From Capsulimonadaceae bacterium (GTDB lineage: Bacteria > Armatimonadota > Armatimonadia > Armatimonadales > Capsulimonadaceae): 64,000 nt of DNA. Below are positions 1 through 12,336 of this stretch, one piece after another. Position 1 is the first letter of the stretch; each line of letters starts with the position of its first letter. The position numbers were made by a program, and so were the translations under genes. The stretch spans positions 960,001-1,024,000 of the forward strand of contig OZ244065.1 in assembly GCA_965215505.1 (NCBI GenBank), written 5' to 3'. The notes under the pieces were generated by a model. It ran no database searches. It was not told the origin of the DNA and worked only from the letters and a program-made list of their open reading frames with translations.

Positions 1-607
1 GCAGGCGACCCGCCCACCGCCGCGCCTCGGCCCGCTTGTCCCCGTCCGTCTTGAAGGCCAGGTAGTTCGCCCCGTTCAGCGCCAGCAGGGCGGCACTCAG
101 CAGCCCGACGAGGATGGCGAACGGGTTCAGGGCCAGCGACAGCGAGCCTTGAAAGTTGCCCGTCGCGTCCAGCGGCACGCCCCGGACGACGTTGCCGACG
201 GCGGCCCCGAATAGCACGGCCAGCAGCAGGCTCGTGCCGCAGAAGGCGAAGTCCCAGAAGCCCCGCCACAAAGGGTCCGCCACCTGCGACCGGAACTCGA
301 TGGCCGACCCGCGCCCGATCAAGAGCCACAGGACGAGCATCAGGACCAGGTAGAAGCCGCTGAAGGAGGCCGCGTACAGCCGGGGGAAGGCGGCCACCAT
401 GCTGCCGCCCGCCGTCAGCAGCCAGACCTCGTAGCCGAACCAGAACGGCCCGATGACGGCCAGGTTCGTGCGCCGCTCGGCGTCATTGCGGCCCAGGACG
501 AAGTGCATGGCCCCGATGCCGAGGTCGAAGCCGTCCAGGATGGCGTAGCCGACTAGCAGCGCGCCCAGGGCGATGAACCAGGCCGTAGGGAGCCAATCAG
601 TATTCAT
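1..607 (-). CDS. cydB: Cytochrome bd ubiquinol oxidase subunit II (3' end off-window)
   Basis: Hand translation MNTDWLPTAWFIALGALLVGYAILDGFDLGIG...IGPFWFGYEVWL...AAFPRLYA...GNVVRGVPL; LDGFDLG motif; ATG overlaps cydA stop (ATGA). Confidence 0.95.
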   Translation of the reverse strand, partial: MNTDWLPTAWFIALGALLVGYAILDGFDLGIGAMHFVLGRNDAERRTNLAVIGPFWFGYEVWLLTAGGSMVAAFPRLYAASFSGFYLVLMLVLWLLIGRGSAIEFRSQVADPLWRGFWDFAFCGTSLLLAVLFGAAVGNVVRGVPLDATGNFQGSLSLALNPFAILVGLLSAALLALNGANYLAFKTDGDKRAEARRWAGRL

Positions 608-1995
608 ACCAGTGCCTCCAGTCGGGATAGCTCATCGATAGGGAGCGGCTGCCCCGGCGCGTCCGGCCCCGCCTCCTCCGGGCCGCGCGCGATGTGCTTG
701 AGCAGCAGGAACACGAACAGCAGGCCCAGCACGATGTAGATGCCGGTGAAGCCCAGCAGGGTGAAGATGACCTCGCCCGCCGAGACGTTCGGCGAGTACC
801 CCTGGCTCGTCCGCAGCACGCCGTAGATGATCCAGGGCTGGCGGCCCACGCAAGTCACCACCCACCCGGCCTCGTTGGCGATGTACGGCAGCGGCAGCGA
901 CAGCATCAGCGCCCACAAGTACCAGCGCGCCGCTTCCAGCTTTCGCCGCCACAGCAGGAACACGCCCAGAGCGGTCAGGGCGATGAAGTAGCCGCCCAGG
1001 GTGATCATGATGTGGTAGGCATAGTAGACGAGTTCGACCGGCGGCCACAGGTCACGGGGGATGTCGTTCAGCCCCTTCACCGAGGCGTGGGCGTCCCCGT
1101 AAGCGAGGTAGGACAGCAGGCCGGGCACCTCAACGGGGTCCAGCAGGTTGCCCTTTTTGGTGTCCGGCATGCCGATGATCGCGAGCGGCGCACCCGGCTC
1201 GCTCTTGAACTGGCCCTCCATGGCGGCCAAGGTCGTCGGCTGATACTTGACGACCATCTCGCCGTTCTTGGCCCCGGTGGGGAAGACTTGGGCGAGCGAG
1301 AAGGCCAGGCCGACGACCAGGCTGAGGGCCAGCGTGACGCGGGCGAAGGCGGTGTGCCTGCGCGAGAGCAGGTAGAAGGCCGCCAGCGCGGCCATGACGA
1401 GCGCGCCGTTGACGAAGGCCCCGCAGAGTGTGTGCAGGTACTCCCAGACCTCGAAGGGGTTTGTCAGCACGGCGGCCAGGCTGGTCAGGCGCAGGACGCC
1501 GCCGGGTTCGGGGGCGAAGCCGACCGGGTGCTGCATCCAGGCATCGGTGGCCGTGATGAAGTAGGCCGAAATGATCGAGCCGGCCGCGACGAGGGCGGCG
1601 GACAGGGCGTGGACCTTGACGGTGACGCGCCGCTCGCCGAAGAGGAAGACGGCGAGGAAGGCGGACTCGAGGAAGAAGGCGAACAGGCCCTCCATCATCA
1701 GGCCCTGGCCGATGATGCCGCCGGAGATGTTGGAGAAGCGCGCCCAGTTAGTGCCGAACTGGAACTCCATGGGGACGCCGGTGGCGACGCCCGCGCCGTA
1801 GTTGAGGAGGAACAGTTTGCCCCAGAAGCGTGCGGCGCGGGCGTGGAGTCCGTCGTAGCCCTCGCCGCGGCGCACCTGGATGACTTTGAGGGCGGCGATG
1901 AGGATGCCCAAGCCGATGGTGACGGGCGGGAACAGATAGTGGAACATGATCAGCGCGGCGAAGTGCACGCGGTCGGCGATGGCGGTCGTGTCCAT
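604..1995 (-). CDS. cydA: Cytochrome bd oxidase subunit I, short Q-loop, Glu-to-Cys variant
   Basis: FHYLF, EFQFGTNW, EGLFAFFLES, WMQHP, LAAMEG, HIM and GRQPW motifs. Confidence 0.96.
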   Translation of the reverse strand: MDTTAIADRVHFAALIMFHYLFPPVTIGLGILIAALKVIQVRRGEGYDGLHARAARFWGKLFLLNYGAGVATGVPMEFQFGTNWARFSNISGGIIGQGLMMEGLFAFFLESAFLAVFLFGERRVTVKVHALSAALVAAGSIISAYFITATDAWMQHPVGFAPEPGGVLRLTSLAAVLTNPFEVWEYLHTLCGAFVNGALVMAALAAFYLLSRRHTAFARVTLALSLVVGLAFSLAQVFPTGAKNGEMVVKYQPTTLAAMEGQFKSEPGAPLAIIGMPDTKKGNLLDPVEVPGLLSYLAYGDAHASVKGLNDIPRDLWPPVELVYYAYHIMITLGGYFIALTALGVFLLWRRKLEAARWYLWALMLSLPLPYIANEAGWVVTCVGRQPWIIYGVLRTSQGYSPNVSAGEVIFTLLGFTGIYIVLGLLFVFLLLKHIARGPEEAGPDAPGQPLPIDELSRLEALV

Positions 1996-2007
1996 GCGTT
2001 CTGCCCC

Positions 2008-2436
2008 CTATTTCACGATAAGAACGGGGCAATGCGCGTGGTGGACCACACGGTCACAGGTACTCCCGAGCAGGAACAGCGTCAGTCCGCTCGCCCCCCG
2101 GCTGCCCAGCACGATCAGGTCGCACCCCTCCACCTCGGCCAGGCGGATGATCTCGGCGGCAGGCTGGCCGACCTCCGAACGGCTTTGGTAAGACACGCCC
2201 GCCTCGTCCACGGTGCGACCCGCGTGCGAGATCGCGTGTTCTTGCAGCTCCGCGATGTACCGCTCGTCCAGCCCGGCGTTGACCATCTCCCCATAAGGCC
2301 CGATGGTCGGAATTGGCTGGAAGACGTTAATGATTGTCAGACGTGCCGCAAATTTGCTCGCCAAAGTCGCCGCCACGGCAGCCGCCTTGATCGCGCATTC
2401 GGACCCGTCCGAGGCCAGTAAGATATGGGTGAACAT
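2008..2436 (-). CDS. Universal stress protein (UspA family)
   Basis: ILLASDGS...DLIVLGSRG...LLGST...HAHCPVLIVK. Confidence 0.95.
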   Translation of the reverse strand: MFTHILLASDGSECAIKAAAVAATLASKFAARLTIINVFQPIPTIGPYGEMVNAGLDERYIAELQEHAISHAGRTVDEAGVSYQSRSEVGQPAAEIIRLAEVEGCDLIVLGSRGASGLTLFLLGSTCDRVVHHAHCPVLIVK

Positions 2437-2548
2437 TTGCGTCCTCTCGTTCCATTACCCGTCGCCCATGCTTCCATGGACCAGATTATTTTGCCAAATA
2501 AGTGTATGCTAAGACAGCATCATCGCCATTGTACCAGGTTTAACGGCG

Positions 2549-2567
2549 ATTGTGATTTCTTCACAAT
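2549..2567. promoter_or_regulatory. Palindromic operator ATTGTGA-N5-TCACAAT (Rex/Crp-like) upstream of usp-cydAB
   Basis: Perfect 7-bp inverted repeat in an AT-rich intergenic region; spacer is 1 nt shorter than the Rex/Crp consensus. Confidence 0.5.
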
Positions 2568-2666
2568 GATATTATTTTTCTGATATTAACTATCAGCTTA
2601 CCTGCTGGGTGCTACCGTCTTGCCCTAATGCCCACGCGGCGAGACTATGCAGGTATAATAAAGCCC

Positions 2667-3308
2667 GTGGCACTCATCAAGATTTGCGGCATCACGAGCT
2701 GGCGGGACGCAGAGGCCGCTGTGGCGGCGGGGGCGGACATGCTGGGCTTCCACTGCGACGAGAACAGCCCGCGCGTCATCGACCCGCTGGACTTCTGCGA
2801 CATCGCCGCCCGCCTGCCCGCGCATGTCGTCCGGGTGGCGGTCTTCGACCGGACCACGGACGCCCGCTGGCGGCTGGAAGGACGGCGCGTGTTCCATCTC
2901 TTCCAGCAGGTCCAGTACTACCAGGACAGCGTCTGGAGCGACATCCTGCGGGAGAACTGGGACATGGGCCGCAAGATCAAAGCGTTCCACCTGGGCACCG
3001 ACCGCGACCTTCGCCGGGTCGCGAGCTTCAACGGCACCGTGCAGTCGTACCTGTTGAACGTCAACGCCTCGGCCCCGGCTTCCTACCCGGACGCGGACGC
3101 CTATGGGTGGGAGCTTGCCCGCGAGACGCACCAGTACGGCAAGAAGCTGTACCTCGCCGGCGGCCTGACGCCCGAGAACGTCGGGGCCGCCATCGCTCGC
3201 GTCCGTCCCTACGCCGTGGACGTGACCGTCGGCGTCGAGTCCGCGCCGGGCCTCAAGGACCCCAACCGGATGCGCGCCTTCGTCAAGGCCGTGCGGGAGG
3301 CGAAATGA
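2667..3308 (+). CDS. TrpF-like paralog 1 (divergent; catalytic Asp replaced by Asn)
   Basis: IKICGIT, ADMLGF, SPRVI, YLAGGLTPENV, DVTVGVE, KD; LLN instead of LLD; GTG 7 nt after TATAAT. Confidence 0.85.
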   Translation: MALIKICGITSWRDAEAAVAAGADMLGFHCDENSPRVIDPLDFCDIAARLPAHVVRVAVFDRTTDARWRLEGRRVFHLFQQVQYYQDSVWSDILRENWDMGRKIKAFHLGTDRDLRRVASFNGTVQSYLLNVNASAPASYPDADAYGWELARETHQYGKKLYLAGGLTPENVGAAIARVRPYAVDVTVGVESAPGLKDPNRMRAFVKAVREAK

Positions 3309-4255
3309 CTTTGTTGCAGCTACCGTTCTTCGATGCCATCGCGAACGCCGAGATTATTCTGCTTGCCGGGGCGGGCGGCGGCTTCGACATCTTCTCCGGC
3401 CTTCCGATCTACTTCGGCCTCAGAAGTATGGGCAAAACAGTCCATCTTGCCAACCTATCCTTCTCGCGCTTATATGAGTCCAATGGGAAGCGGCTGGGGA
3501 CAGGACTGGTAGAGGTCACTGCACAGACTGAAGGCTTCGAGCGTTACTTCCCCGAGCTGCATCTGGCACGGTGGCTAGCGGCGCAGGGAGAGCCGGCACC
3601 GATCTACGGCATTGACCGCGCAGGCGTCAAGCCGATCAGCGCGGCCTACCGGGCGCTGAACGAGAGGCTGAAGCCGGACGCCGTGATCCTGATAGACGGC
3701 GGCACGGACAGCCTGATGCGCGGGGACGAGGCGGGGCTTGGCACCCCGCAGGAGGATGTCGCCAGCCTCTCCGCCGTCCACGCCCTCGACGTGCCGACCA
3801 AGCTGCTTGTTTGCCTCGGCTTCGGCGTAGACACCTACCACGGAGTCTGTCACGCTCAGTTTTTAGAGGCCGTGGCCGATCTGAGCCGTCAAGGTGCGTT
3901 CCTCGGCATGTGGAGCCTGACCCGCGACATGCCGGAAGTAAAACGCTACATCGAGGCCGTGGACCATGTAAACGGCATCATGTCGGATCACCCCAGCATC
4001 GTCTCGTCGTCCATCGTGTCGGCGATCGAGGGTCAGTTCGGCGACCACCACCGGAATTATCGCACGGAAGGCAGCCGCCTGTTCATCAACGCCCTGATGA
4101 CGCTCTACTGGTGCTTCCGCCTGGATGCCGTCGCCGGGCGCATCCTGTATCTGGACGCGGTGCGCGAGACCGAGAGTTTCCGCGACATGACACTCGCCAT
4201 CGAGTATTTTCGGGCCACCCATGACAGCAAGGGCTGGGTTGACCTACCGATGTAG
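3305..4255 (+). CDS. DUF1152-family protein
   Basis: AGAGGGFDIF, LIDGGTDSLMRGDEAGLGTPQED, GFGVD, SIVSS motifs; ATGA overlap with trpF1. Confidence 0.8.
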   Translation: MTLLQLPFFDAIANAEIILLAGAGGGFDIFSGLPIYFGLRSMGKTVHLANLSFSRLYESNGKRLGTGLVEVTAQTEGFERYFPELHLARWLAAQGEPAPIYGIDRAGVKPISAAYRALNERLKPDAVILIDGGTDSLMRGDEAGLGTPQEDVASLSAVHALDVPTKLLVCLGFGVDTYHGVCHAQFLEAVADLSRQGAFLGMWSLTRDMPEVKRYIEAVDHVNGIMSDHPSIVSSSIVSAIEGQFGDHHRNYRTEGSRLFINALMTLYWCFRLDAVAGRILYLDAVRETESFRDMTLAIEYFRATHDSKGWVDLPM

Positions 4256-4322
4256 GACGGCGGCTTTAACGCCGAATAAAACCACCTCTCACAGGACGAA
4301 GCCAAGAAAGCAAGGATGAACC

Positions 4323-4934
4323 ATGACACGAATTATGATCTCCGGCGTCACGAACAGGCCGGACGCACTGGCGGCGGTGGAGGCCGGGGCGGATGCGCTG
4401 GGCTTCATCGCGATTCCCGGCAACCCGCGCTCTCTGGAGCCGCAGGAGTATTTCGAGATCACCGAGAACTTGCCGATCTTCGTCCGGTGCGTCGGCGTGT
4501 TCGAGCGGCCCGGCGAGTACGACGATTATATGCCGGATTATGTCCAGCACTACGAAGACACGGCGGCGGAGTCCCGCGCCACGGGCCTAGCGGGTATCCG
4601 CATCCGCGTCTTTCGGATGCGGGACGAGTCTACGCTGAACGAGATTCGGGACTATCCTGATCCGGTCGGCGCGATCCTGCTGGACATGGACCACGCGGGA
4701 ACGCTTTATGGGTCGGGCGAGACCTTCGACTGGTCCCTGGCCGTCCGGGCGAAGGCGCTGACGGACCGCCCTATCATCCTGTCCGGCGGCCTGACGCCCG
4801 AAAATGTTGGGGCCGCCATCGCCCGCGTCCGCCCCTACGCCGTGGACGTGACGGAGGGCGTCGAGTCCCCGCCAGGCGTCAAGGACCCGAACAAGATGCG
4901 CGCGTTTGTGGAGGCCGTGCGGGAGGCGAGATGA
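4323..4934 (+). CDS. TrpF-like paralog 2 (KICG replaced by MISG; chimeric)
   Basis: [35 protein letters not shown]. Confidence 0.85.
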   Translation: MTRIMISGVTNRPDALAAVEAGADALGFIAIPGNPRSLEPQEYFEITENLPIFVRCVGVFERPGEYDDYMPDYVQHYEDTAAESRATGLAGIRIRVFRMRDESTLNEIRDYPDPVGAILLDMDHAGTLYGSGETFDWSLAVRAKALTDRPIILSGGLTPENVGAAIARVRPYAVDVTEGVESPPGVKDPNKMRAFVEAVREAR

Positions 4935-5488
4935 TTATTGACCAAGAAGCGCGGGAGCGATGGGTCATTCCATTCTACATGAAGGTGCTTCACGCACAAC
5001 AACCGCTTGCTGTCACAGAGTTACTCATTGAGGCCAGCAATGCGATCTCGCAAGAAACCGTGGACGCCCTTCTGGCTGACTTCAATTGGCGGACCCGAAA
5101 GATGGCAGCGATCTACGCGGGCGTCAATGCTTGGTCGGGATTCACGGATGCAATCGGCGGGCACCTGCTCAAGAGTGAGGTCTGCTTTGCGGGCGCATCC
5201 TACTGTTTTGCGCTGGCCCGCTTCGGCTCAGACGATGCGGTTTTTTATCTCAAGCAGTACCTCGACATCTGGCTCAGGCGGCCCGAGTGCTGGTATGACC
5301 AGAGTCATGCGCTTGCCGCGTTGCTCTGGCTTGACCGTATTCGGGGCACCGACGATGCGGCGGCCTACTTGGCCAATGGGGGCATTTGGGAATGTTTTGT
5401 TCAGAACAAGCCTCACTGGGATTTGCAGCGTACTAGGCTAACATTTTTTGAGACGATGAAGTTTTGTCAGGAGCAATTTCCTCAGTGA
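4931..5488 (+). CDS. DUF6000-like hypothetical protein, lower GC
   Basis: PFYMK, NWRTR, LLKSEVCFAG-YC-ALA, YLDIWL...YDQ pattern; overlaps both neighbours by 4 nt. Confidence 0.65.
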   Translation: MIIDQEARERWVIPFYMKVLHAQQPLAVTELLIEASNAISQETVDALLADFNWRTRKMAAIYAGVNAWSGFTDAIGGHLLKSEVCFAGASYCFALARFGSDDAVFYLKQYLDIWLRRPECWYDQSHALAALLWLDRIRGTDDAAAYLANGGIWECFVQNKPHWDLQRTRLTFFETMKFCQEQFPQ

Positions 5489-6108
5489 CCAGAATCAAAA
5501 TCTGCGGCATCTCGAATGGCCTGGACGCGATGGCGGCGGCGGACGCGGGCGCGGACGCCCTGGGCTTCATCGCCGTGCCGGGCAGCCCGCGCTACCTGCC
5601 GCCGGAGGTCTATCGCGAGATCAGCGCGGCCCTGCCGATCTTGGTCAAGCGCGTCGTCGTCGCGCACCGGCCCGAGGACGCGGAGGAGTATCTGGCCGAG
5701 TACGTCCAGCACTACGAGGACGCCTCGGACGAGTCCCACATGCGGCGCGGGGCGGCCTGGCGCATCCGGGCGTTTCGGATGCGCGATGAGTCATCACTCC
5801 GAGAGATCGGGGCCTACCCCGACGCCGTCGGCGCAGTCCTGCTGGATGCCTACCACAAGGCGATGCTCGGCGGGTCGGGCGAGACCTTCGACTGGTCCCT
5901 GGCCGTCCGGGCGAAGGCGCTGACGGGCCGGCCCGTCCTCCTGGCGGGCGGCCTGACGCCGGACAACGTGCAGGACGCCCTGGAAGCCGTGCGGCCCTAC
6001 GGCGTGGATGTGGCTTCGGGGGTGGAGGCGTCACCGGGCGTCAAGGACCACGCGAAGGTTCGGGCGTTCGTGCGGGCGGTGAGGGAGTGGGATCTGCGGC
6101 AGGGGTAG
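5485..6108 (+). CDS. trpF: Phosphoribosylanthranilate isomerase (canonical copy)
   Basis: [38 protein letters not shown] all intact; immediately upstream of trpBA. Confidence 0.92.
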
Positions 6109-6137
6109 CGGCCCGCGCGGATGGCGCTCCGGTGTCG

Positions 6138-6296
6138 GCCCCCACCCCCGGCGCGGACGCCGACCCCTGCCCCCGCAAGCGGGAGAGGGGTGAGGAAGTG
6201 TTCAGAGGGGAGCCGAAATGCAACGGTGACTGCTCTATCCTCTCTTTCACCCCGCTTGCGGGGGCAGGGGTCGGCGTCCGCGCCGGAGGTGGGGGC
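6138..6296. repeat. Long palindromic REP-like element (46-bp arms, 1 mismatch)
   Basis: 6138-6183 is the reverse complement of 6251-6296. Confidence 0.9.
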
Positions 6297-6314
6297 ATCC
6301 CACTTCTCCTCCCG

Positions 6315-6344
6315 TTGACAGCCTCCCCACCGAACTGCTACAAT
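6315..6344 (+). promoter_or_regulatory. Sigma70-type promoter of trpBA
   Basis: TTGACA-N18-TACAAT with extended TG. Confidence 0.7.
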
Positions 6345-6374
6345 ACGCCACGTTTTAGAAGGAAGTACCCTCCG

Positions 6375-7637
6375 ATGGCACCCCAGATACTGGAACAGAC
6401 GCAGCAGATGACGGAACAGCAGAAGACGGAAGAAGCGGCCCCGAACAAGTACGTCGCCGACGCGCAGGGGCGGTTTGGCGGAGAGTTCGGCGGGCGGTTC
6501 GTGCCTGAGACGATCATCCCCGCCCTGGACGAGCTAACGGAAGCCTACGCCAAGGCGAAGGCCGACCCGACGTTCCAGACGGAGTTCGATTACTACGCCA
6601 AGAACTACGTCGGTCGGCCCACGGCCCTATTCTTCGCCGAGAAGATGACGCGGGAATTGGGCGGGGCGAAGATCTACCTGAAGCGCGAAGACCTGGCGCA
6701 CACGGGCGCGCACAAGATCAACAATGCGCTGGGCCAGATCCTGCTGGCGAAGCGCATGAACAAGCCGCGCATCATCGCCGAGACCGGCGCGGGGCAGCAC
6801 GGGGTCGCCACGGCGACGGCCTGCGCGCTGTTCGGCTACGAGTGCATCGTCTACATGGGCGAGGAGGACGTGCAGCGGCAGGCACTCAACGTCGTGCGGA
6901 TGAAGCTCCTCGGCGCGACCGTCCGGCCCGTCTCGTCCGGGACGAAGACGCTCAAGGACGCCTTGAACGAGGCGATGCGCGACTGGGTGACGAACGTCCA
7001 CGACACGCACTACATCATCGGGACCGTGGCCGGGCCGCACCCCTACCCGACGATGGTGCGGGACTTCCAATCGGTGATCGGCATCGAGGCGCGGCAGCAG
7101 ATGATGGAGGACACCGGCGGCCTGCCGGACGCCGTCGTCGCCTGCGTCGGCGGCGGGTCCAACGCCATGGGCATCTTCTACCCGTTCGTCCACGACGAGG
7201 GCGTCCGGCTCATCGGCGTCGAGGCGGCCGGCGACGGCGTCCACACCGGCCGGCACGCCGCGACCCTGACGGCGGGGAGCAAGGGCGTCCTGCACGGCTC
7301 GGCCTCCTACGTCATTCAGGACGACTACGGGCAGGTGCTGGCGACGCACAGCGTCTCGGCGGGCCTGGACTACCCAGGCGTTGGACCGGAACACGCCTTC
7401 TTCAAGGACATTGGCCGGGCCGAATACGTCTCCATCACCGACGACGAGGCCCTGGACGCCTTCCAGTGGACGGCCCGGACGGAGGGCATCATCCCCGCCC
7501 TGGAGACGTCCCATGCCTTCGCCCACGTCCGCAAGATCGCGCCGCTGATGTCCCCGGAGCAGACCCTGATCGTCTGCCTGTCGGGGCGCGGCGACAAGGA
7601 CGTGGACTCGGTCGCGGGCCGTCTGGGGCTGCTGTAA
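6375..7637 (+). CDS. trpB: Tryptophan synthase beta
   Basis: [53 protein letters not shown]. Confidence 0.98.
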
Positions 7638-7640
7638 GCC

Positions 7641-8444
7641 ATGTCCCAGCGCCTCGACCAGACCTTTGCCCGCCTCAAAGACGCCCACGAGGGCGCACTC
7701 GTCACCTTCATTACGGCGGGCGACCCGTCCCCGGCGGGGACGCCCGCCCTCATCGCCGCGCTGGCGCAGGGCGGCGCGGACATCGTGGAACTCGGCATCC
7801 CCTACTCTGACCCACTGGCCGACGGCCCCAGCATCCAGGCGTCCTCGCAGCGCGCTCTGGACAAAGGCGTCACGCCGGATACCATCCTGCAAATGATCCA
7901 GGACGCCCGCGCTCTGACCCAGGTGCCGCTCGTCCTAATGACCTCATATAACCTGGCCCTCCGGTACGGCCTGGAGCGGTTCGCGCGGGTCTTTTCTCAG
8001 GCGGGCGCGGACGGGGCCATCCTGACCGATCTGCCGCCGGAAGAGGCTGTCCCCTGGAAGGCCGCCGCCACCGCGCACGGCATGGCGACGATCTTCCTGG
8101 TCGCGCCGACCTCCACGCCCGAGCGCATCGCACTGATCGCCTCCAACACGACGGGCTTCGTCTACTGCGTCTCGCGCACCGGCGTGACCGGCGCGCGGAC
8201 GGAGCTTCCCGCCGAGCTGAAGGCCTTGATCGCGCGCATCCGAGCGGCGACCGACAAGCCGGTCTGCGTCGGCTTCGGCATTTCCCAGCCCGCGCACGTC
8301 ACACAAGTGATCGGGGACGCCGACGGCGCGGTCATCGGCAGCGCCCTGGTGGACTTCTTACACGCACACGCCGATGATCCCAACCAGACGGCGGAGCTGA
8401 CACGGCTGGTCGCCTCCTGGAAGGAAGGGACGCGGCGGGCCTGA
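7641..8444 (+). CDS. trpA: Tryptophan synthase alpha
   Basis: ELGIPYSDPLADGPSIQ, SRTGVTG, VGFGIS. Confidence 0.98.
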   Translation: MSQRLDQTFARLKDAHEGALVTFITAGDPSPAGTPALIAALAQGGADIVELGIPYSDPLADGPSIQASSQRALDKGVTPDTILQMIQDARALTQVPLVLMTSYNLALRYGLERFARVFSQAGADGAILTDLPPEEAVPWKAAATAHGMATIFLVAPTSTPERIALIASNTTGFVYCVSRTGVTGARTELPAELKALIARIRAATDKPVCVGFGISQPAHVTQVIGDADGAVIGSALVDFLHAHADDPNQTAELTRLVASWKEGTRRA

Positions 8445-8465
8445 CCGCCGAAGTCTGAGGAGAGA

Positions 8466-9170
8466 ATGTACACCAAAGAGCAGTTCGGCAAGACCATAGA
8501 CAACACACTCCTGCGGCCCACCAGCACCCGTGACGAGGTGCTGCGGCTCTGCGAGGAGAGCGCCAAGCGGCACCTGGCGACCGTCTGCATCCTGCCCTGC
8601 TGGGTTGGGGCGGCGGCGCGCGCCCTGGCCGGGTCGGACGTCAAGGTCTGCACCGTCGTCGGCTTCCCGTTCGGGGCCAGCACCAAACTCGCCAAGGTCT
8701 ACGAGGCAAAGAACGCCATCGCGAACGGCGCACAGGAGATTGACGCCGTCCTGAGCCTCGCCAGGTTCAAATCGGGCGACTTCGACGCCGTCATGGAGGA
8801 CCTGCGTGGGCTGGTGGAGGCCTGCCGCGCGCCGGGGCGGACCGAGGAGTCCCGGAGCGTCCTGCTGAAAGTCATCATCGAGACGTGCTATTTGGACGGC
8901 GAGGAGATAGACGTGGCATCGCAACTCGTCCGCGACGCCGGGGCGGACTTTGTCAAGACCTCGACCGGCACGGCGGGCGGCGGCGCGACGGTCGAAGACC
9001 TCCGGCGCATCCGCCGGGCGGTCGGCCCCTCCCCCATCGGCATCAAGGCGTCCGGCGGCATCAAGACGGTCGAAACCGCCTTGCAGATGCTCGACGCGGG
9101 CGCGAACCGCATCGGCACATCGTCGGGCAGCGCCCTGTATGACGCCTACAACCCCCAGGATTTTGCCTAA
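8466..9170 (+). CDS. deoC: Deoxyribose-phosphate aldolase
   Basis: VCTVVGFPFG, LKVIIETC, FVKTSTG, IKASGGI, RIGTSSG. Confidence 0.96.
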   Translation: MYTKEQFGKTIDNTLLRPTSTRDEVLRLCEESAKRHLATVCILPCWVGAAARALAGSDVKVCTVVGFPFGASTKLAKVYEAKNAIANGAQEIDAVLSLARFKSGDFDAVMEDLRGLVEACRAPGRTEESRSVLLKVIIETCYLDGEEIDVASQLVRDAGADFVKTSTGTAGGGATVEDLRRIRRAVGPSPIGIKASGGIKTVETALQMLDAGANRIGTSSGSALYDAYNPQDFA

Positions 9171-9179
9171 GTGCCGGGG

Positions 9180-9542
9180 CTAGTCGCAGCCGAGACGCTG
9201 CGGCAGGGCCGTCAGGGCGAACGCCGACGGGTCGGTGTCGTCCGCGACCTGGTTGTAGAGGCTGACCGCCGCGCGGGTGTTCTGACGCCACCGGGCCGCC
9301 TCGGGTGCCGTCCGGGCCAGCCGCAGATGCCGGCGGCAGCGCGCGCAGCTCCGGTACTGACAGCGCAGCAGGGTGAGGCGGGTCGCGTTATAGGCGGCGG
9401 GCTTTGGCTGTCGCCCCTCCCCGATCTCGGCGGAGGAAAAGGCCGCCGGCCTCTGGACAGGGAGGGCGGCGACGCAAAACAGCAGGCTCAGACCGAGGCA
9501 GGGAACAATCAGGACGGAAATCAAAGGCGTCAGCTTGGACAT
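9180..9542 (-). CDS. Hypothetical membrane-anchored/secreted protein
   Basis: AAAGGAG RBS, hydrophobic N-terminus, fills the gap between deoC and recO. Confidence 0.55.
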   Translation of the reverse strand: MSKLTPLISVLIVPCLGLSLLFCVAALPVQRPAAFSSAEIGEGRQPKPAAYNATRLTLLRCQYRSCARCRRHLRLARTAPEAARWRQNTRAAVSLYNQVADDTDPSAFALTALPQRLGCD

Positions 9543-9610
9543 GGCGATCTCCTTTGTAATCTTCACTGCATAAACCATGCCAAGTAAATAGACGGGGGTA
9601 TAATTTCTTT

Positions 9611-10396
9611 ATGCCCGCGTACACCACCGACGCCGTCGTCCTGCGCCGCCTGCAATACGGCGAGACGGACAACATCCTGACCCTCTACTCGCCCGACAAG
9701 GGCCGCTTCTCGGCCATCGCCAAGGGCGCGCGCAAGGCCATCTCCCGGCTGTCCGGCGCGACCGAGGTCCTCACCTGCACCCGCTTCGGCCTGGCGACCG
9801 GCAAGTCGCTGGAGATCGTCACCCAGGTGGAGGTGCAGGAGTCGTTCAGCCACCTGCGCCAAGACCTGAACCGCCTCGCCCACGGCCTCTACCTCGCCGA
9901 CCTCGCAGACCACTCGGTCGAGGATCACGCCCCCAACCCCCTCCTGTACGACCTGCTGCTGACCGGCCTGCGCCAGACCCAGGCGCTGGACCCGCCCGAG
10001 CTTGCCGCCCGCTGGTTCGAAGTCCAGCTTCTCGGCGACCTCGGCTACGCCCCCAACCTTGCCGAGTGTACCGCCTGCCAGACACCCCTCCCCGGCGACT
10101 TTCCGCGCGACGAGGTGTTCGCCCTCTCCGCCGCGCTTGGCGGCGCGCTCTGCCCCCGCCACGCCCACCCCGAAGCCAACGAAGACCACAGCGGGCTGGG
10201 CATGGGTGCCCTGCGCCTCCTGCAAACACTGGAAAACCTGGGGGTAGAAGGCGGCGTTGCGCTGGCCGCCCTCCCCGCCGCCGGCCCGAAGAGTCTGGAC
10301 CAGGCGCGTCTCGCCCTGCGCCGCTCGTTGCGGTTCCGGCTGGAACGGGATCTGAAGAGCCTGGAGTTTCTGGACAGCCTGCGGTATAGCGCGTGA
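9611..10396 (+). CDS. recO: DNA repair protein RecO
   Basis: AVVLRR-YGETD, AIAKGARK, LGYAPNL-ECTAC, GGALCP. Confidence 0.95.
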   Translation: MPAYTTDAVVLRRLQYGETDNILTLYSPDKGRFSAIAKGARKAISRLSGATEVLTCTRFGLATGKSLEIVTQVEVQESFSHLRQDLNRLAHGLYLADLADHSVEDHAPNPLLYDLLLTGLRQTQALDPPELAARWFEVQLLGDLGYAPNLAECTACQTPLPGDFPRDEVFALSAALGGALCPRHAHPEANEDHSGLGMGALRLLQTLENLGVEGGVALAALPAAGPKSLDQARLALRRSLRFRLERDLKSLEFLDSLRYSA

Positions 10397-10420
10397 AGCA
10401 ACGAGGAGGGTCAAGGATGG

Positions 10421-10499
10421 GAGGGTCGGGGGACCCGACCCCTACAGGAATGGAGTCACTCGGGCCGTGTAGGGGCGGGGTCCCCCCACCCTCTTCTCC
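10421..10499. repeat. GTAG-type REP doublet
   Basis: ...GACCCGACCCCTAC and GTAGGGGCGGGGTCCCCCCACCCTCTTCTCC; near-identical to 28885-28916. Confidence 0.8.
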
Positions 10500-10593
10500 A
10501 TAACTGATATTACGCACTGTCTGCCGTCTTCCCCTGGTGTGATACCCCGGCGGAGTGAGCGGGCTGAGAACGGGCTGGGTGTAGGCTGAACAG

Positions 10594-10741
10594 GCCGAGT
10601 GGTTGAAAACCACTCGCTAGGAGAAGCGTTCTGCTAACGGAAATACGGGAACGGATGTCCCTGCCCGCGAGGGGCCACCTCGGAGCCATGTCCTGTGTCC
10701 GAAGGACACCTCTCCTAGCGAGTGGTTTTCAACCACTCGGC
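10594..10741. repeat. REPIN/MITE-like element with 31-bp perfect inverted arms
   Basis: GCCGAGTGGTTGAAAACCACTCGCTAGGAGA (10594-10624) and its reverse complement at 10711-10741. Confidence 0.9.
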
Positions 10742-10821
10742 TCGGAGCGGCACTCGGCACGGCACGGTACACGGCGCTGCGACGCCTGCGTAACATCAGT
10801 CCATAAAGCTACGCACCCCGC

Positions 10822-12336
10822 CTACTCATACCGCAGCGCCGTATCCCCCAGCACGATGGTATCCCCCGACGACAAAGGCCGCGCGTCGGCGACGCGGGAG
10901 CCGTTGATGAAGGTGCCGTTGGAGGAGCCGCCGTCGGCGAGCAGGTGGCGGCCGTCGGCATAGGTGATGCGGGCGTGGAGGCGGGAAATGGAGGTGTCGG
11001 CGGGGAGCGGGATGGTCTGCTCTGGCGCGCGGCCGATGGTGGCGGGGGCGTGGCTGAGGGGGAAGGACTGGCCGGAATACGGCCCCTGGACGCAGACGAG
11101 CCGTGTGCCCGCCCCGCCCATGCCAGGGCTGCTCATTGCCGGGCTGGTCATCGCCGTGCCGTTCAGACCACCGATGGCGGGTCCGCTCATGCCGGGGCTG
11201 AAAACGGTGGCGTCACTGACGGGGGCGGAACCCATCTGGGCGATGACGTCGTCGGGCGTGGTCAGGGGCGGGCGGGACGGGGTCGCCGAGGCACCGGCAA
11301 GCTCCTGGCCGACATAGCGCGGCGTTCCGGGCGGCGCAGCCTGACCCGATGCGGCGGCGGGGGCACCGGCCCCGGAGCGACGGGTGGCCTTCTCGTGGAA
11401 CAGCAATGTCCGCCGGCCGACCTGGATGGTATCGCCGTCGGCAAGCCACATCTCGTTCGCGACCGGCTGGCCGTTGACCAGGGGCGGCGCGTAGGTCGCC
11501 CCGCGCTTGCCCCCCTCGCCGACGAAGCGCAGGCGGTGCCGGTTCTGGGCGGGCAGCGACTCGATGGCGATGTGGGTGGGCGCGATCTCCGGGTCGCCGT
11601 ACAGCCCGATGTCGGACAGCTCGCCGCGCCCAACCGTCGTGATCGGCTTCGCGATCAAATACTCCTTGCCCTCGTTCTTCCCCAGAACGACCCGCACCCA
11701 GGCCTGCTTGAACAGGTTCTGGACGACCCCGATGAGGAACCCGGCCAGCGCGCCGACGGCGACCAGCGCGATCAGGCGGCTGAGGGGGGCGGGGAAGTCC
11801 AGCCCGTTCAGTATCTCGAAGGCGCTGCCGCCGAGGAACCCGCCGATCAGCCCGCCGAGCGCCCCCTGCCGGGCCACCAGGGCGGAACGGCTGACGATCC
11901 CCTGCGCCGCCCCGACGATGGCCCCGATGAGGGCGTACCCGAGCGCGCGGGCGAAAAGGAGGACGAAGAAGCGGCCCGGCGAGCTGACCTCCTCGCTGCC
12001 GCTGCCGACGATGACGCCGAACACGCTCTGGCCCAGCGACAGCCCCACCCAGCCCCCCACCGCCCCGATGCCCGCGCCCAGGGCGAGCGTCTGGATCAGG
12101 CGGCGCTGCGACCCGATGGACAGCGACTCGACGACGGCCAGCATCAGGCCCAGGAGGAGGCCGAACAGGGCGCCGTAGAGCAGGAACTTCGGGTCCCCGA
12201 ACAGCCCGGACACCACCATGCGGTGCGGCTGGAAGATCTCGGCGAACCAGCCCGTCAGGTCGGTCAGTATCCAGGCGAGGAAGCCCGCCAGGCCGCCGGC
12301 GAGCAGGTTGAGGAAGGATTTGCCTAGCAGGGACAT
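10822..12336 (-). CDS. Multi-pass membrane protein with two C-terminal FHA domains
   Basis: Gly-rich TM helices; VGRGELSDI and IGRAPEQ...ISRLHA...SSNGTFING FHA motifs. Confidence 0.88.
   Translation of the reverse strand: MSLLGKSFLNLLAGGLAGFLAWILTDLTGWFAEIFQPHRMVVSGLFGDPKFLLYGALFGLLLGLMLAVVESLSIGSQRRLIQTLALGAGIGAVGGWVGLSLGQSVFGVIVGSGSEEVSSPGRFFVLLFARALGYALIGAIVGAAQGIVSRSALVARQGALGGLIGGFLGGSAFEILNGLDFPAPLSRLIALVAVGALAGFLIGVVQNLFKQAWVRVVLGKNEGKEYLIAKPITTVGRGELSDIGLYGDPEIAPTHIAIESLPAQNRHRLRFVGEGGKRGATYAPPLVNGQPVANEMWLADGDTIQVGRRTLLFHEKATRRSGAGAPAAASGQAAPPGTPRYVGQELAGASATPSRPPLTTPDDVIAQMGSAPVSDATVFSPGMSGPAIGGLNGTAMTSPAMSSPGMGGAGTRLVCVQGPYSGQSFPLSHAPATIGRAPEQTIPLPADTSISRLHARITYADGRHLLADGGSSNGTFINGSRVADARPLSSGDTIVLGDTALRYE

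Follow-up and report, generated by a model that had tools for sequence, protein, structure and literature searches.

Three TrpF genes upstream of trpB and trpA

We analyzed a 64,000-nucleotide stretch of DNA (hereafter the window) from a Capsulimonadaceae bacterium (contig OZ244065.1, positions 960,001 to 1,024,000), in which three genes for phosphoribosylanthranilate isomerase (PRAI; TrpF) lie upstream of trpB and trpA. The three genes, here called copies 1 to 3, are all open and full-length among the open reading frames (ORFs) of the window, and all match Pfam PF00697. The original prediction had described them as tandem paralogs, two of them with complementary catalytic lesions. The three intact genes stand, but they are not adjacent: unrelated genes of the DUF1152 and DUF6000 families separate them, in the order copy 1-DUF1152-copy 2-DUF6000-copy 3-trpB-trpA (Table 1). 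Our main subjects are copy 1, a putative pseudoenzyme, and the origin of copy 2.

Copy 3 (5485-6108) is a canonical TrpF with K5, C7, R36, and D121 (LLD) and the motifs KICG, GGSG, and DVASGVE; it passed all of the TrpF motif tests, and its best match among solved structures is 1LBM (E = 5e-35). Copy 1 has KICG, LLN, and DVTVGVE and lacks the GGSG loop, and copy 2 (4323-4934) has MISG, LLD, YGSG, and DVTEGVE. Alignment to T. maritima 1LBM placed the altered motifs at Cys7, Asp126, loop 6, and the S180-S181 loop, confirming the residue changes first reported for each copy.

The three-copy layout is real. At least half of the words of the stretch occur in nine sequencing runs from five studies, the best of which may be the source sample; none of the listed runs containing the stretch is an RNA dataset. 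Among four runs examined, X3 yielded a single contig over 3222-5658 with 5 differences, while X6, X7, and X8, from three further studies, yielded near-identical pieces across the junctions, none of which covers the whole stretch. As the junctions were recovered in all four, we rejected an assembly artifact.

Table 1. Features of the trpF array and its surroundings (positions in the window)
Feature	Position	Strand	Remarks
-10-like box GGTATAAT	2652..2659	+	7 nucleotides before the copy 1 GTG
Copy 1, Asn126 TrpF subfamily, putative pseudoenzyme, 213 aa	2667..3308	+
DUF1152 cargo gene, 316 aa	3305..4255	+	Pfam PF06626, E 6e-19; start overlaps copy 1 stop
Copy 2, 5' part, apparently derived from a canonical 'type B' trpF	4323..4781	+	K5M, C7S, loop-6 changes
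Copy 2, 3' part, apparently derived from a copy-1 allele	4782..4934	+
DUF6000 cargo gene, 185 aa	4931..5488	+	Pfam PF19463, E 2e-44
Copy 3, canonical trpF, 'type A' allele, 207 aa	5485..6108	+
Sigma-70-like promoter before trpB, strong	6315..6344	+	TTGACA-18-TACAAT, 11/12
trpB then trpA, downstream operon context	6375..8444	+	Window ORFs; L263 equivalents match PALP and Trp_syntA

A TrpF family with Asn at the Asp126 site

Copy 1 matches PF00697 at 69.3 bits (cut-off 22.7). Its model is a (beta/alpha)8 TrpF barrel with a predicted local distance difference test score (pLDDT) of 95.7, its best fold match is 1NSJ/1LBM (Foldseek E = 8e-18, template modeling score 0.79), and a search of the ESM Atlas returned PRAI clusters and no other family. 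Against the NCBIfam TrpF equivalog it scored 135.7 bits at best, below the cut-off of 215, as does canonical copy 3 (194.7).

A study of TrpF (PMC2667513) gives Cys7 and Asp126 as the catalytic pair, with Asp126 essential, and Arg36 as binding the anthranilate carboxylate. At the site equivalent to Asp126 (N131 in copy 1), 120/121 copy-1 sequences have Asn and 1/121 has His. Across 148 newly listed TrpF representatives, taken from the 150 best matches, this site is Asp in 143 and Asn in 1, and the lone Asn belongs to the copy-1 family's own representative. On these counts, Asn at the Asp126 site is more than chance. Cys7, invariant in canonical TrpF (95/95 sequences), is present in copy 1 and in 98/106 family members, with Ser, Asp, or Asn in 8/102; such relaxation is expected if catalysis no longer matters. 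R36 (120/120), K5 (104/106), and G166 (120/121) are kept. The TrpF phosphate site, which we take to consist of the loop-6 GG[ST]G, the loop-7 GG, and the loop-8 SS, is altered in copy 1: loop 6 is replaced, and S180-S181 of loop 8 has become T-V (T187 in 110/120, V188 in 116/120). The two glycines of loop 7 are retained in 118 and 120 of 121 sequences. With this GG and the loop-8 Thr hydroxyl in place, the earlier suggestion of a non-phosphorylated substrate looks weak.

Comparison of 102 members with the canonical consensus identified 31 positions that are at least 90% conserved in the copy-1 family yet unlike that consensus, including W68, F79, W90, ENWxMxRK (96-103), R116, G123, Q126, Q156, G158, and K159. 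By the secondary structure of the model, many of these residues lie in helix-to-strand loops, across the barrel from the active site, on the side where T. maritima TrpF has its dimer contact. The conserved Trp/Arg/Lys surface of copy 1 is predicted from the model to be exposed.

A profile of the same 102 members found copy 1 in 18 of the 23 other genomes of the genus and in 10 of the 15 genomes from the family's other genera (28/38 for the family), and in 0/32 genomes of the sister family; a G006 match at 1.8e-47 and a second G016 match were excluded from these counts as canonical trpF. Identity among the 120 homologues listed ranges from 92% down to 50%, and the named relatives are from Armatimonadota, Capsulimonas, and Capsulimonadaceae bacterium, with P0218 from Capsulimonas corticalis. 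Searching 1.84 billion representatives revealed a score gap, with two at 239-267 bits and all ordinary TrpFs at or below 158.

In a tree of 55 rows, the 17 copy-1 members formed one clade (100/100) with a stem of 1.22 changes per column and shorter crown branches. The clade was tentatively placed with outside TrpFs, at an unstarred 91/91 from a bootstrap that had not settled. Origin by in-place duplication of the family's trpF is not established, as the tree joins copy 1 to outside TrpFs. The beta3-beta4 region of copy 1 is also longer than in the family's own trpF, and copy 1 may therefore descend from an older paralogue or a transfer rather than from a recent tandem duplication. To judge from sequence, it would represent a TrpF subfamily not yet described; we found neither an account of an Asn126 TrpF subfamily nor a paper pairing an Armatimonad with trpF in the literature searched, the coverage of which excludes most subscription journals.

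The median pairwise ratio of nonsynonymous to synonymous substitution rates (dN/dS) was 0.149 for copy 1 (24 genes; 269/276 pairs within dS 0.05-2) and 0.156 for canonical trpF (37 genes; 633/666 pairs), and codon models gave omega values of 0.061 and 0.070, respectively. Copy 1 is constrained as strongly as real trpF. It combines loss of a catalytic residue with purifying selection, as expected of a pseudoenzyme. The original prediction had read it as a retained pseudo-enzyme or a repurposed enzyme and had named neutral decay and absence from relatives as the contrary outcome; the lesions of copy 1 are family-wide, and its presence in relatives and low dN/dS bear that reading out.

Outside the genus, copy 1 directly follows trpC in 6 of 10 genomes, with one intervening gene in a further 3; trpD stands ahead of them in 7, and the trpC-copy 1 pair occurs without trpD in 2. 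The L263 locus, for example, reads trpD-trpC-x-copy 1-cargo-trpF-trpB-trpA. A second, higher-scoring PRAI gene is present in 26/26 copy-1 carriers (G061 and G064 lie outside this count). Six other genomes of the genus have copy 1 upstream of trpF, in one case by joining two contigs. The G000 cluster trpG-peptidase-trpD-trpC (L332, 4505-9550) contains small genes without an NCBIfam match between the trp genes.

Copy 2, the cargo genes, and the trpF alleles

Over its first 153 codons, copy 2 has 79% nucleotide identity to a 'type B' trpF (L074) and about 50% to copy 1, whereas over codons 163-201 the eight nearest copy-1 alleles match it at 85-91% and no trpF exceeds 74%. Informative sites divide 137:23 (trpF-like:copy-1-like) to the left of the break and 2:21 to the right. 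The breakpoint, its position chosen for best fit, falls between 4781 and 4790, in the shared L[AS]GGLTPEN-coding stretch, and the shared crossover stretch is CCTG.C.GGCGGCCTGACGCC, at about 4778-4800. From these identities, copy 2 is almost certainly chimeric in origin, a trpF allele as far as about 4785, followed by the end of a copy-1 gene.

Both parental layouts are found: copy 1-DUF1152-trpF(B)-trpB in L102 and G012, and copy 1-DUF6000-trpF-trpB in L084. Unequal crossover between a 'copy 1-DUF1152-trpF(B)' chromosome and a 'copy 1-DUF6000-trpF(A)' chromosome would generate copy 1-DUF1152-[trpF(B)::copy 1]-DUF6000-trpF(A), and the redundant hybrid would then have lost Lys5 and Cys7 under relaxed selection.

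Copy 2 was found in G000 only among 41 genomes, and no orthologue of it was present among the 80 loci retained of 91 from JGI metagenomes (top identity 74%). The 120 protein clusters listed include one other hybrid, P0006, which is 90% identical; no reciprocal chimera was seen among 121 rows of copy-1 sequences. Copy 2 (P0002) and P0006 share K5M, C7S, and Y123D (canonical rows have K and C in 108/108) and differ at 23/203 sites, several of which are conserved elsewhere. P0006 keeps DVTVGVE, showing that the DVTEGVE of copy 2 derives from the DVTVG of copy 1. In seven triplets, copy 2 had 19-22 private amino acid changes versus 6-11 in the sister alleles. The chance of acquiring no stop codon without selection was 0.51 for 23 missense changes and 0.27 for 45 in a model that leaves indels aside, so the open frame of copy 2 is unremarkable; translational coupling, by way of the start-stop overlaps that run through DUF6000 into trpF, could favor an open frame as well. 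A single-sequence structure prediction was uninformative (pLDDT 51). Copy 2 is likely in relaxed decay, and the first reading of it as a retained pseudo-enzyme is not supported, as it is chimeric and rare. We regard it as an ordinary recombination product and a clear example of cargo-gene shuffling around trp genes.

The array is joined by start-stop overlaps (ATGA/ATGA/GTGA), with the DUF6000 gene overlapping both the copy 2 stop and the copy 3 start. GC content is 0.62 for the DUF1152 gene and 0.545 for the DUF6000 gene, compared with 0.66-0.71 for the TrpF copies. A DUF1152 gene also follows copy 1 in G012, L080, L102, and L266, and in L084 copy 1 and trpF flank a DUF6000 gene, as they do across two contigs in G022. 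By eye, a -10-like box, GGTA(C/T)A(A/C)T, lies a few bases before the start in 20/23 copy-1 loci, from which a promoter of leaderless type may be inferred for copy 1; the window's own box (GGTATAAT) is absent from the list of sites of a sigma-70 scan. No structured RNA was found in window positions 1-12000 at E 0.5, and no terminator-like site in 2300-6500. The gap between trpF and trpB (about 6130-6300) contains a repeat, probably dispersed and palindromic, at which depth spikes sharply and loose ends are numerous.

The trpF gene occurs in the genus as two allele types (window 5485-6108 versus L037 and L038). Between G012 and G000, trpB is 90% identical and trpF 77%, a contrast that suggests allele exchange. 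In copy 3, positions 5793-5838 carry about ten substitutions relative to the window in all four runs, mostly three bases apart, reflecting either a recombined patch or a second strain. Duplicates of the last ~35 trpF codons follow cargo genes located after trpF in L077 (4026-4130), L078 (3982-4088), and L085 (6711-6823), as if cargo had been inserted by recombination at the trpF 3' end; no integrase is evident among the listed ORFs of L077 and L085. The genome also carries a fourth, more distant TrpF-like gene, at G000:C1:1490181-1490804 (L003). It has the motifs KICC, PSGPG, LLD, GGTG, and DLCSGV, thus retaining Cys and Asp, and it falls in a separate clade (tree stem 2.21) with relatives in the sister-family genomes G025, G026, G028, and G034.

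The role of copy 1 and comparison with known systems

TrpF is a textbook model of how barrel enzymes evolve, and few pathways in biology are as well mapped as that of tryptophan. A family-wide disarmed TrpF in trp operons, as constrained as the real enzyme, would imply either a reaction not yet known or an unknown control or channeling step within the pathway. Sources that give the copy-1 proteins a name label them plainly as phosphoribosylanthranilate isomerase, which would be a standing misannotation. Copy 1 is also directly testable, being a protein of 213 aa with a confident model and a member in the named species Capsulimonas corticalis.

Copy 1 is very probably selected and not a normal isomerase, to go by its residues and substitution pattern. 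The best explanation of the whole, to which we give about an even chance, is that it is a non-catalytic, ligand-binding accessory of tryptophan synthesis and that copy 2 is a crossover by-product. Copy 1 would then be an old, family-specific TrpF paralogue that gave up phosphoribosylanthranilate (PRA) isomerase catalysis and was retained as a non-catalytic accessory of the pathway. It would bind PRA or the product, CdRP [1-(o-carboxyphenylamino)-1-deoxyribulose 5-phosphate], via Arg36, Lys5, and Asn131 without turnover, and its conserved surface (the RENWxMxRK, NGxVQ, and QxGK loops, W68, and W90) may be a docking face, the most likely partner being TrpC or TrpF, or copy 1 itself. In this way, it would buffer a labile intermediate or tune flux. 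PRA is labile, and TrpF with Asp126Asn retains ligand binding while catalysis is lost. We read copy 1 as a binder because Arg36 and Lys5 are kept, the catalytic acid is replaced by an amide of the same shape, the base is drifting, and the new surface lies off the pocket.

Several observations weigh against this explanation. Loop 6 is the least conserved region of copy 1 (mean 0.59 versus 0.71-0.82) and Val stands in place of Ser181, so phosphate may be bound too weakly for a substrate trap. A new catalytic role would also fit an Asn fixed as strictly as in these sequences. Copy 1 was not found in the near-complete genomes G002, G006, G009, G024, G059, and G070, and is therefore dispensable, an accessory. 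In the window's own genus, copy 1 is no longer linked to trpC, and in 12 genomes it has no trp genes nearby; the linkage may be only ancestral gene order, and no TrpC feature was seen to track copy 1 in the portion of the TrpC alignment examined by eye. For copy 2, branch dS (-0.07 to 0.39) is too noisy for omega or a statement on neutrality, and two of the seven triplets gave it the same omega as the sister lineage.

A more specific form of the accessory role, possible though doubtful, is that copy 1 represents a class of tryptophan regulators made from a dead isomerase, an Asp126-to-Asn trap for PRA or CdRP that docks to TrpC or TrpF. If true, copy 1 would provide protein-level control of tryptophan synthesis in a lineage that has neither TrpR nor TRAP nor a trp T-box. 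TrpR and TRAP were found in 0/5 genomes searched, and three T-box-like RNAs in G000, all below the gathering score (C1:1902198, 5384033, and 3286676), precede ilvB, thrC, and valS, with none before trp genes. The absence of these regulators leaves room for copy 1 as a regulator without pointing to one, since G006 lacks TrpR and TRAP and also lacks copy 1.

The main rival, which we consider rather unlikely, is that copy 1 is a new enzyme, its barrel rewired after duplication or transfer to work on a different substrate by means of Asn131, Cys30-Asp31, Arg36, and often Cys7. The long stem followed by constraint fits this, as do newly conserved residues on the catalytic face (C30 in 94/102, D31 in 93/101, and Y146-G147), the altered phosphate loop, and the separate -10 box and non-trp neighbors in most of the genus. 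There is also a precedent in Chlamydia, where TrpF was recruited to another pathway (PMC4161248). However, the sole recurring neighbors of copy 1 are trp genes, with no other pathway indicated, Cys7 is dispensable in 8/102 members, and the loops on the side away from the active site hold many of the new invariant residues. The obvious gaps are also closed: a Chlamydia-like folate bypass was ruled out by FolE (PF01227) matches in 39/39 family genomes, with FolE2 in 0/39, and a HisA substitute was ruled out by a HisA above the cut-off in G000. The latter is of the eukaryote type (TIGR02129; C1:767172-767861, L328). In two genomes, folE appears as two matches within one frame of 554-556 aa (G012:C56:6423-7928 and G016:C1:1544399-1545904), which looks like an intein-sized insertion.

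Two further alternatives are improbable. Copy 1 could still be a PRA isomerase, only slower or under different regulation, its general acid being another residue or water; it retains K5, C7 (98/106), R36, Q83, and the loop-7 GG, and it occupies the trpF position after trpC. Asp126 is, however, essential in TrpF (PMC2667513), no replacement acid is fixed (position 133 is His in 90/121 and Asn in 29/121), some family members have Ser, Asp, or Asn at Cys7, and copy 1 never replaces trpF in the 26 carriers. Equally improbable is that copy 1 no longer binds small molecules and serves instead, as a scaffold or regulator, to bind a protein or RNA outside the tryptophan pathway. Invariant Trp and basic residues off the active site (W68, W90, W98, R102, K103, R116, Q156, and K159) would suit it, and the tryptophan regulator is unaccounted for, given the TrpR, TRAP, and T-box results above. 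Against it, the pocket residues Arg36, Lys5, and Asn131 are conserved at least as well as the surface, the domain search found no DNA- or RNA-binding domain, and G006, without copy 1, likewise has neither TrpR nor TRAP.

It is very improbable that selection maintains copies 1 and 2 as a pair with complementing lesions, such as a heterodimer. In favor of this, neither frame is interrupted, K5M and C7S are common to copy 2 and P0006 despite 23 amino acid differences, and the locus recurs in runs of several studies. Against it, copy 2 is chimeric and rare, its private amino acid changes are two to three times those of sister alleles, its open frame is unremarkable by the no-stop chance, and within a single barrel Cys7 and Asp126 work on the same ligand (PMC2667513). 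A complementary pair has no support, since among the 41 genomes each of the 18 other carriers of copy 1 lacks copy 2; the complementary lesions are a coincidence.

Compared with known systems, copy 1 resembles TrpF (PF00697; 1NSJ/1LBM) in fold, in K5, C7, and R36, in the loop-7 GG and the DV-x-x-GVE frame, and in its place in the trp operon. It differs in having Asn126, a replaced loop 6, T-V for S180-S181, a relaxed Cys7, a new conserved surface rich in Trp, Arg, and Lys, and an ordinary trpF alongside. Chlamydia TrpF, as described in PMC4161248, was recruited to folate synthesis, where it fills a folE gap while keeping PRA isomerase activity. Copy 1 would likewise be a TrpF with a role beyond its annotation, but here folE is present in 39/39 genomes and the catalytic acid is gone. 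As a working model, copy 1 is like plant PDX1.2, a pseudoenzyme subunit of pyridoxal phosphate synthase, in being a dead TIM-barrel paralogue beside an active twin in a biosynthetic pathway. The families differ, the PDX1.2/PDX1.3 entry 6HYE was a distant barrel match only in the fold search with copy 1, and a PDX1.2-type complex is an analogy for copy 1. Copy 2, for its part, is like paralogue crossover chimeras in its single breakpoint within a short identical stretch and in the survival of both parental gene orders; unlike the usual cases, the event also stacked two cargo genes in one array.

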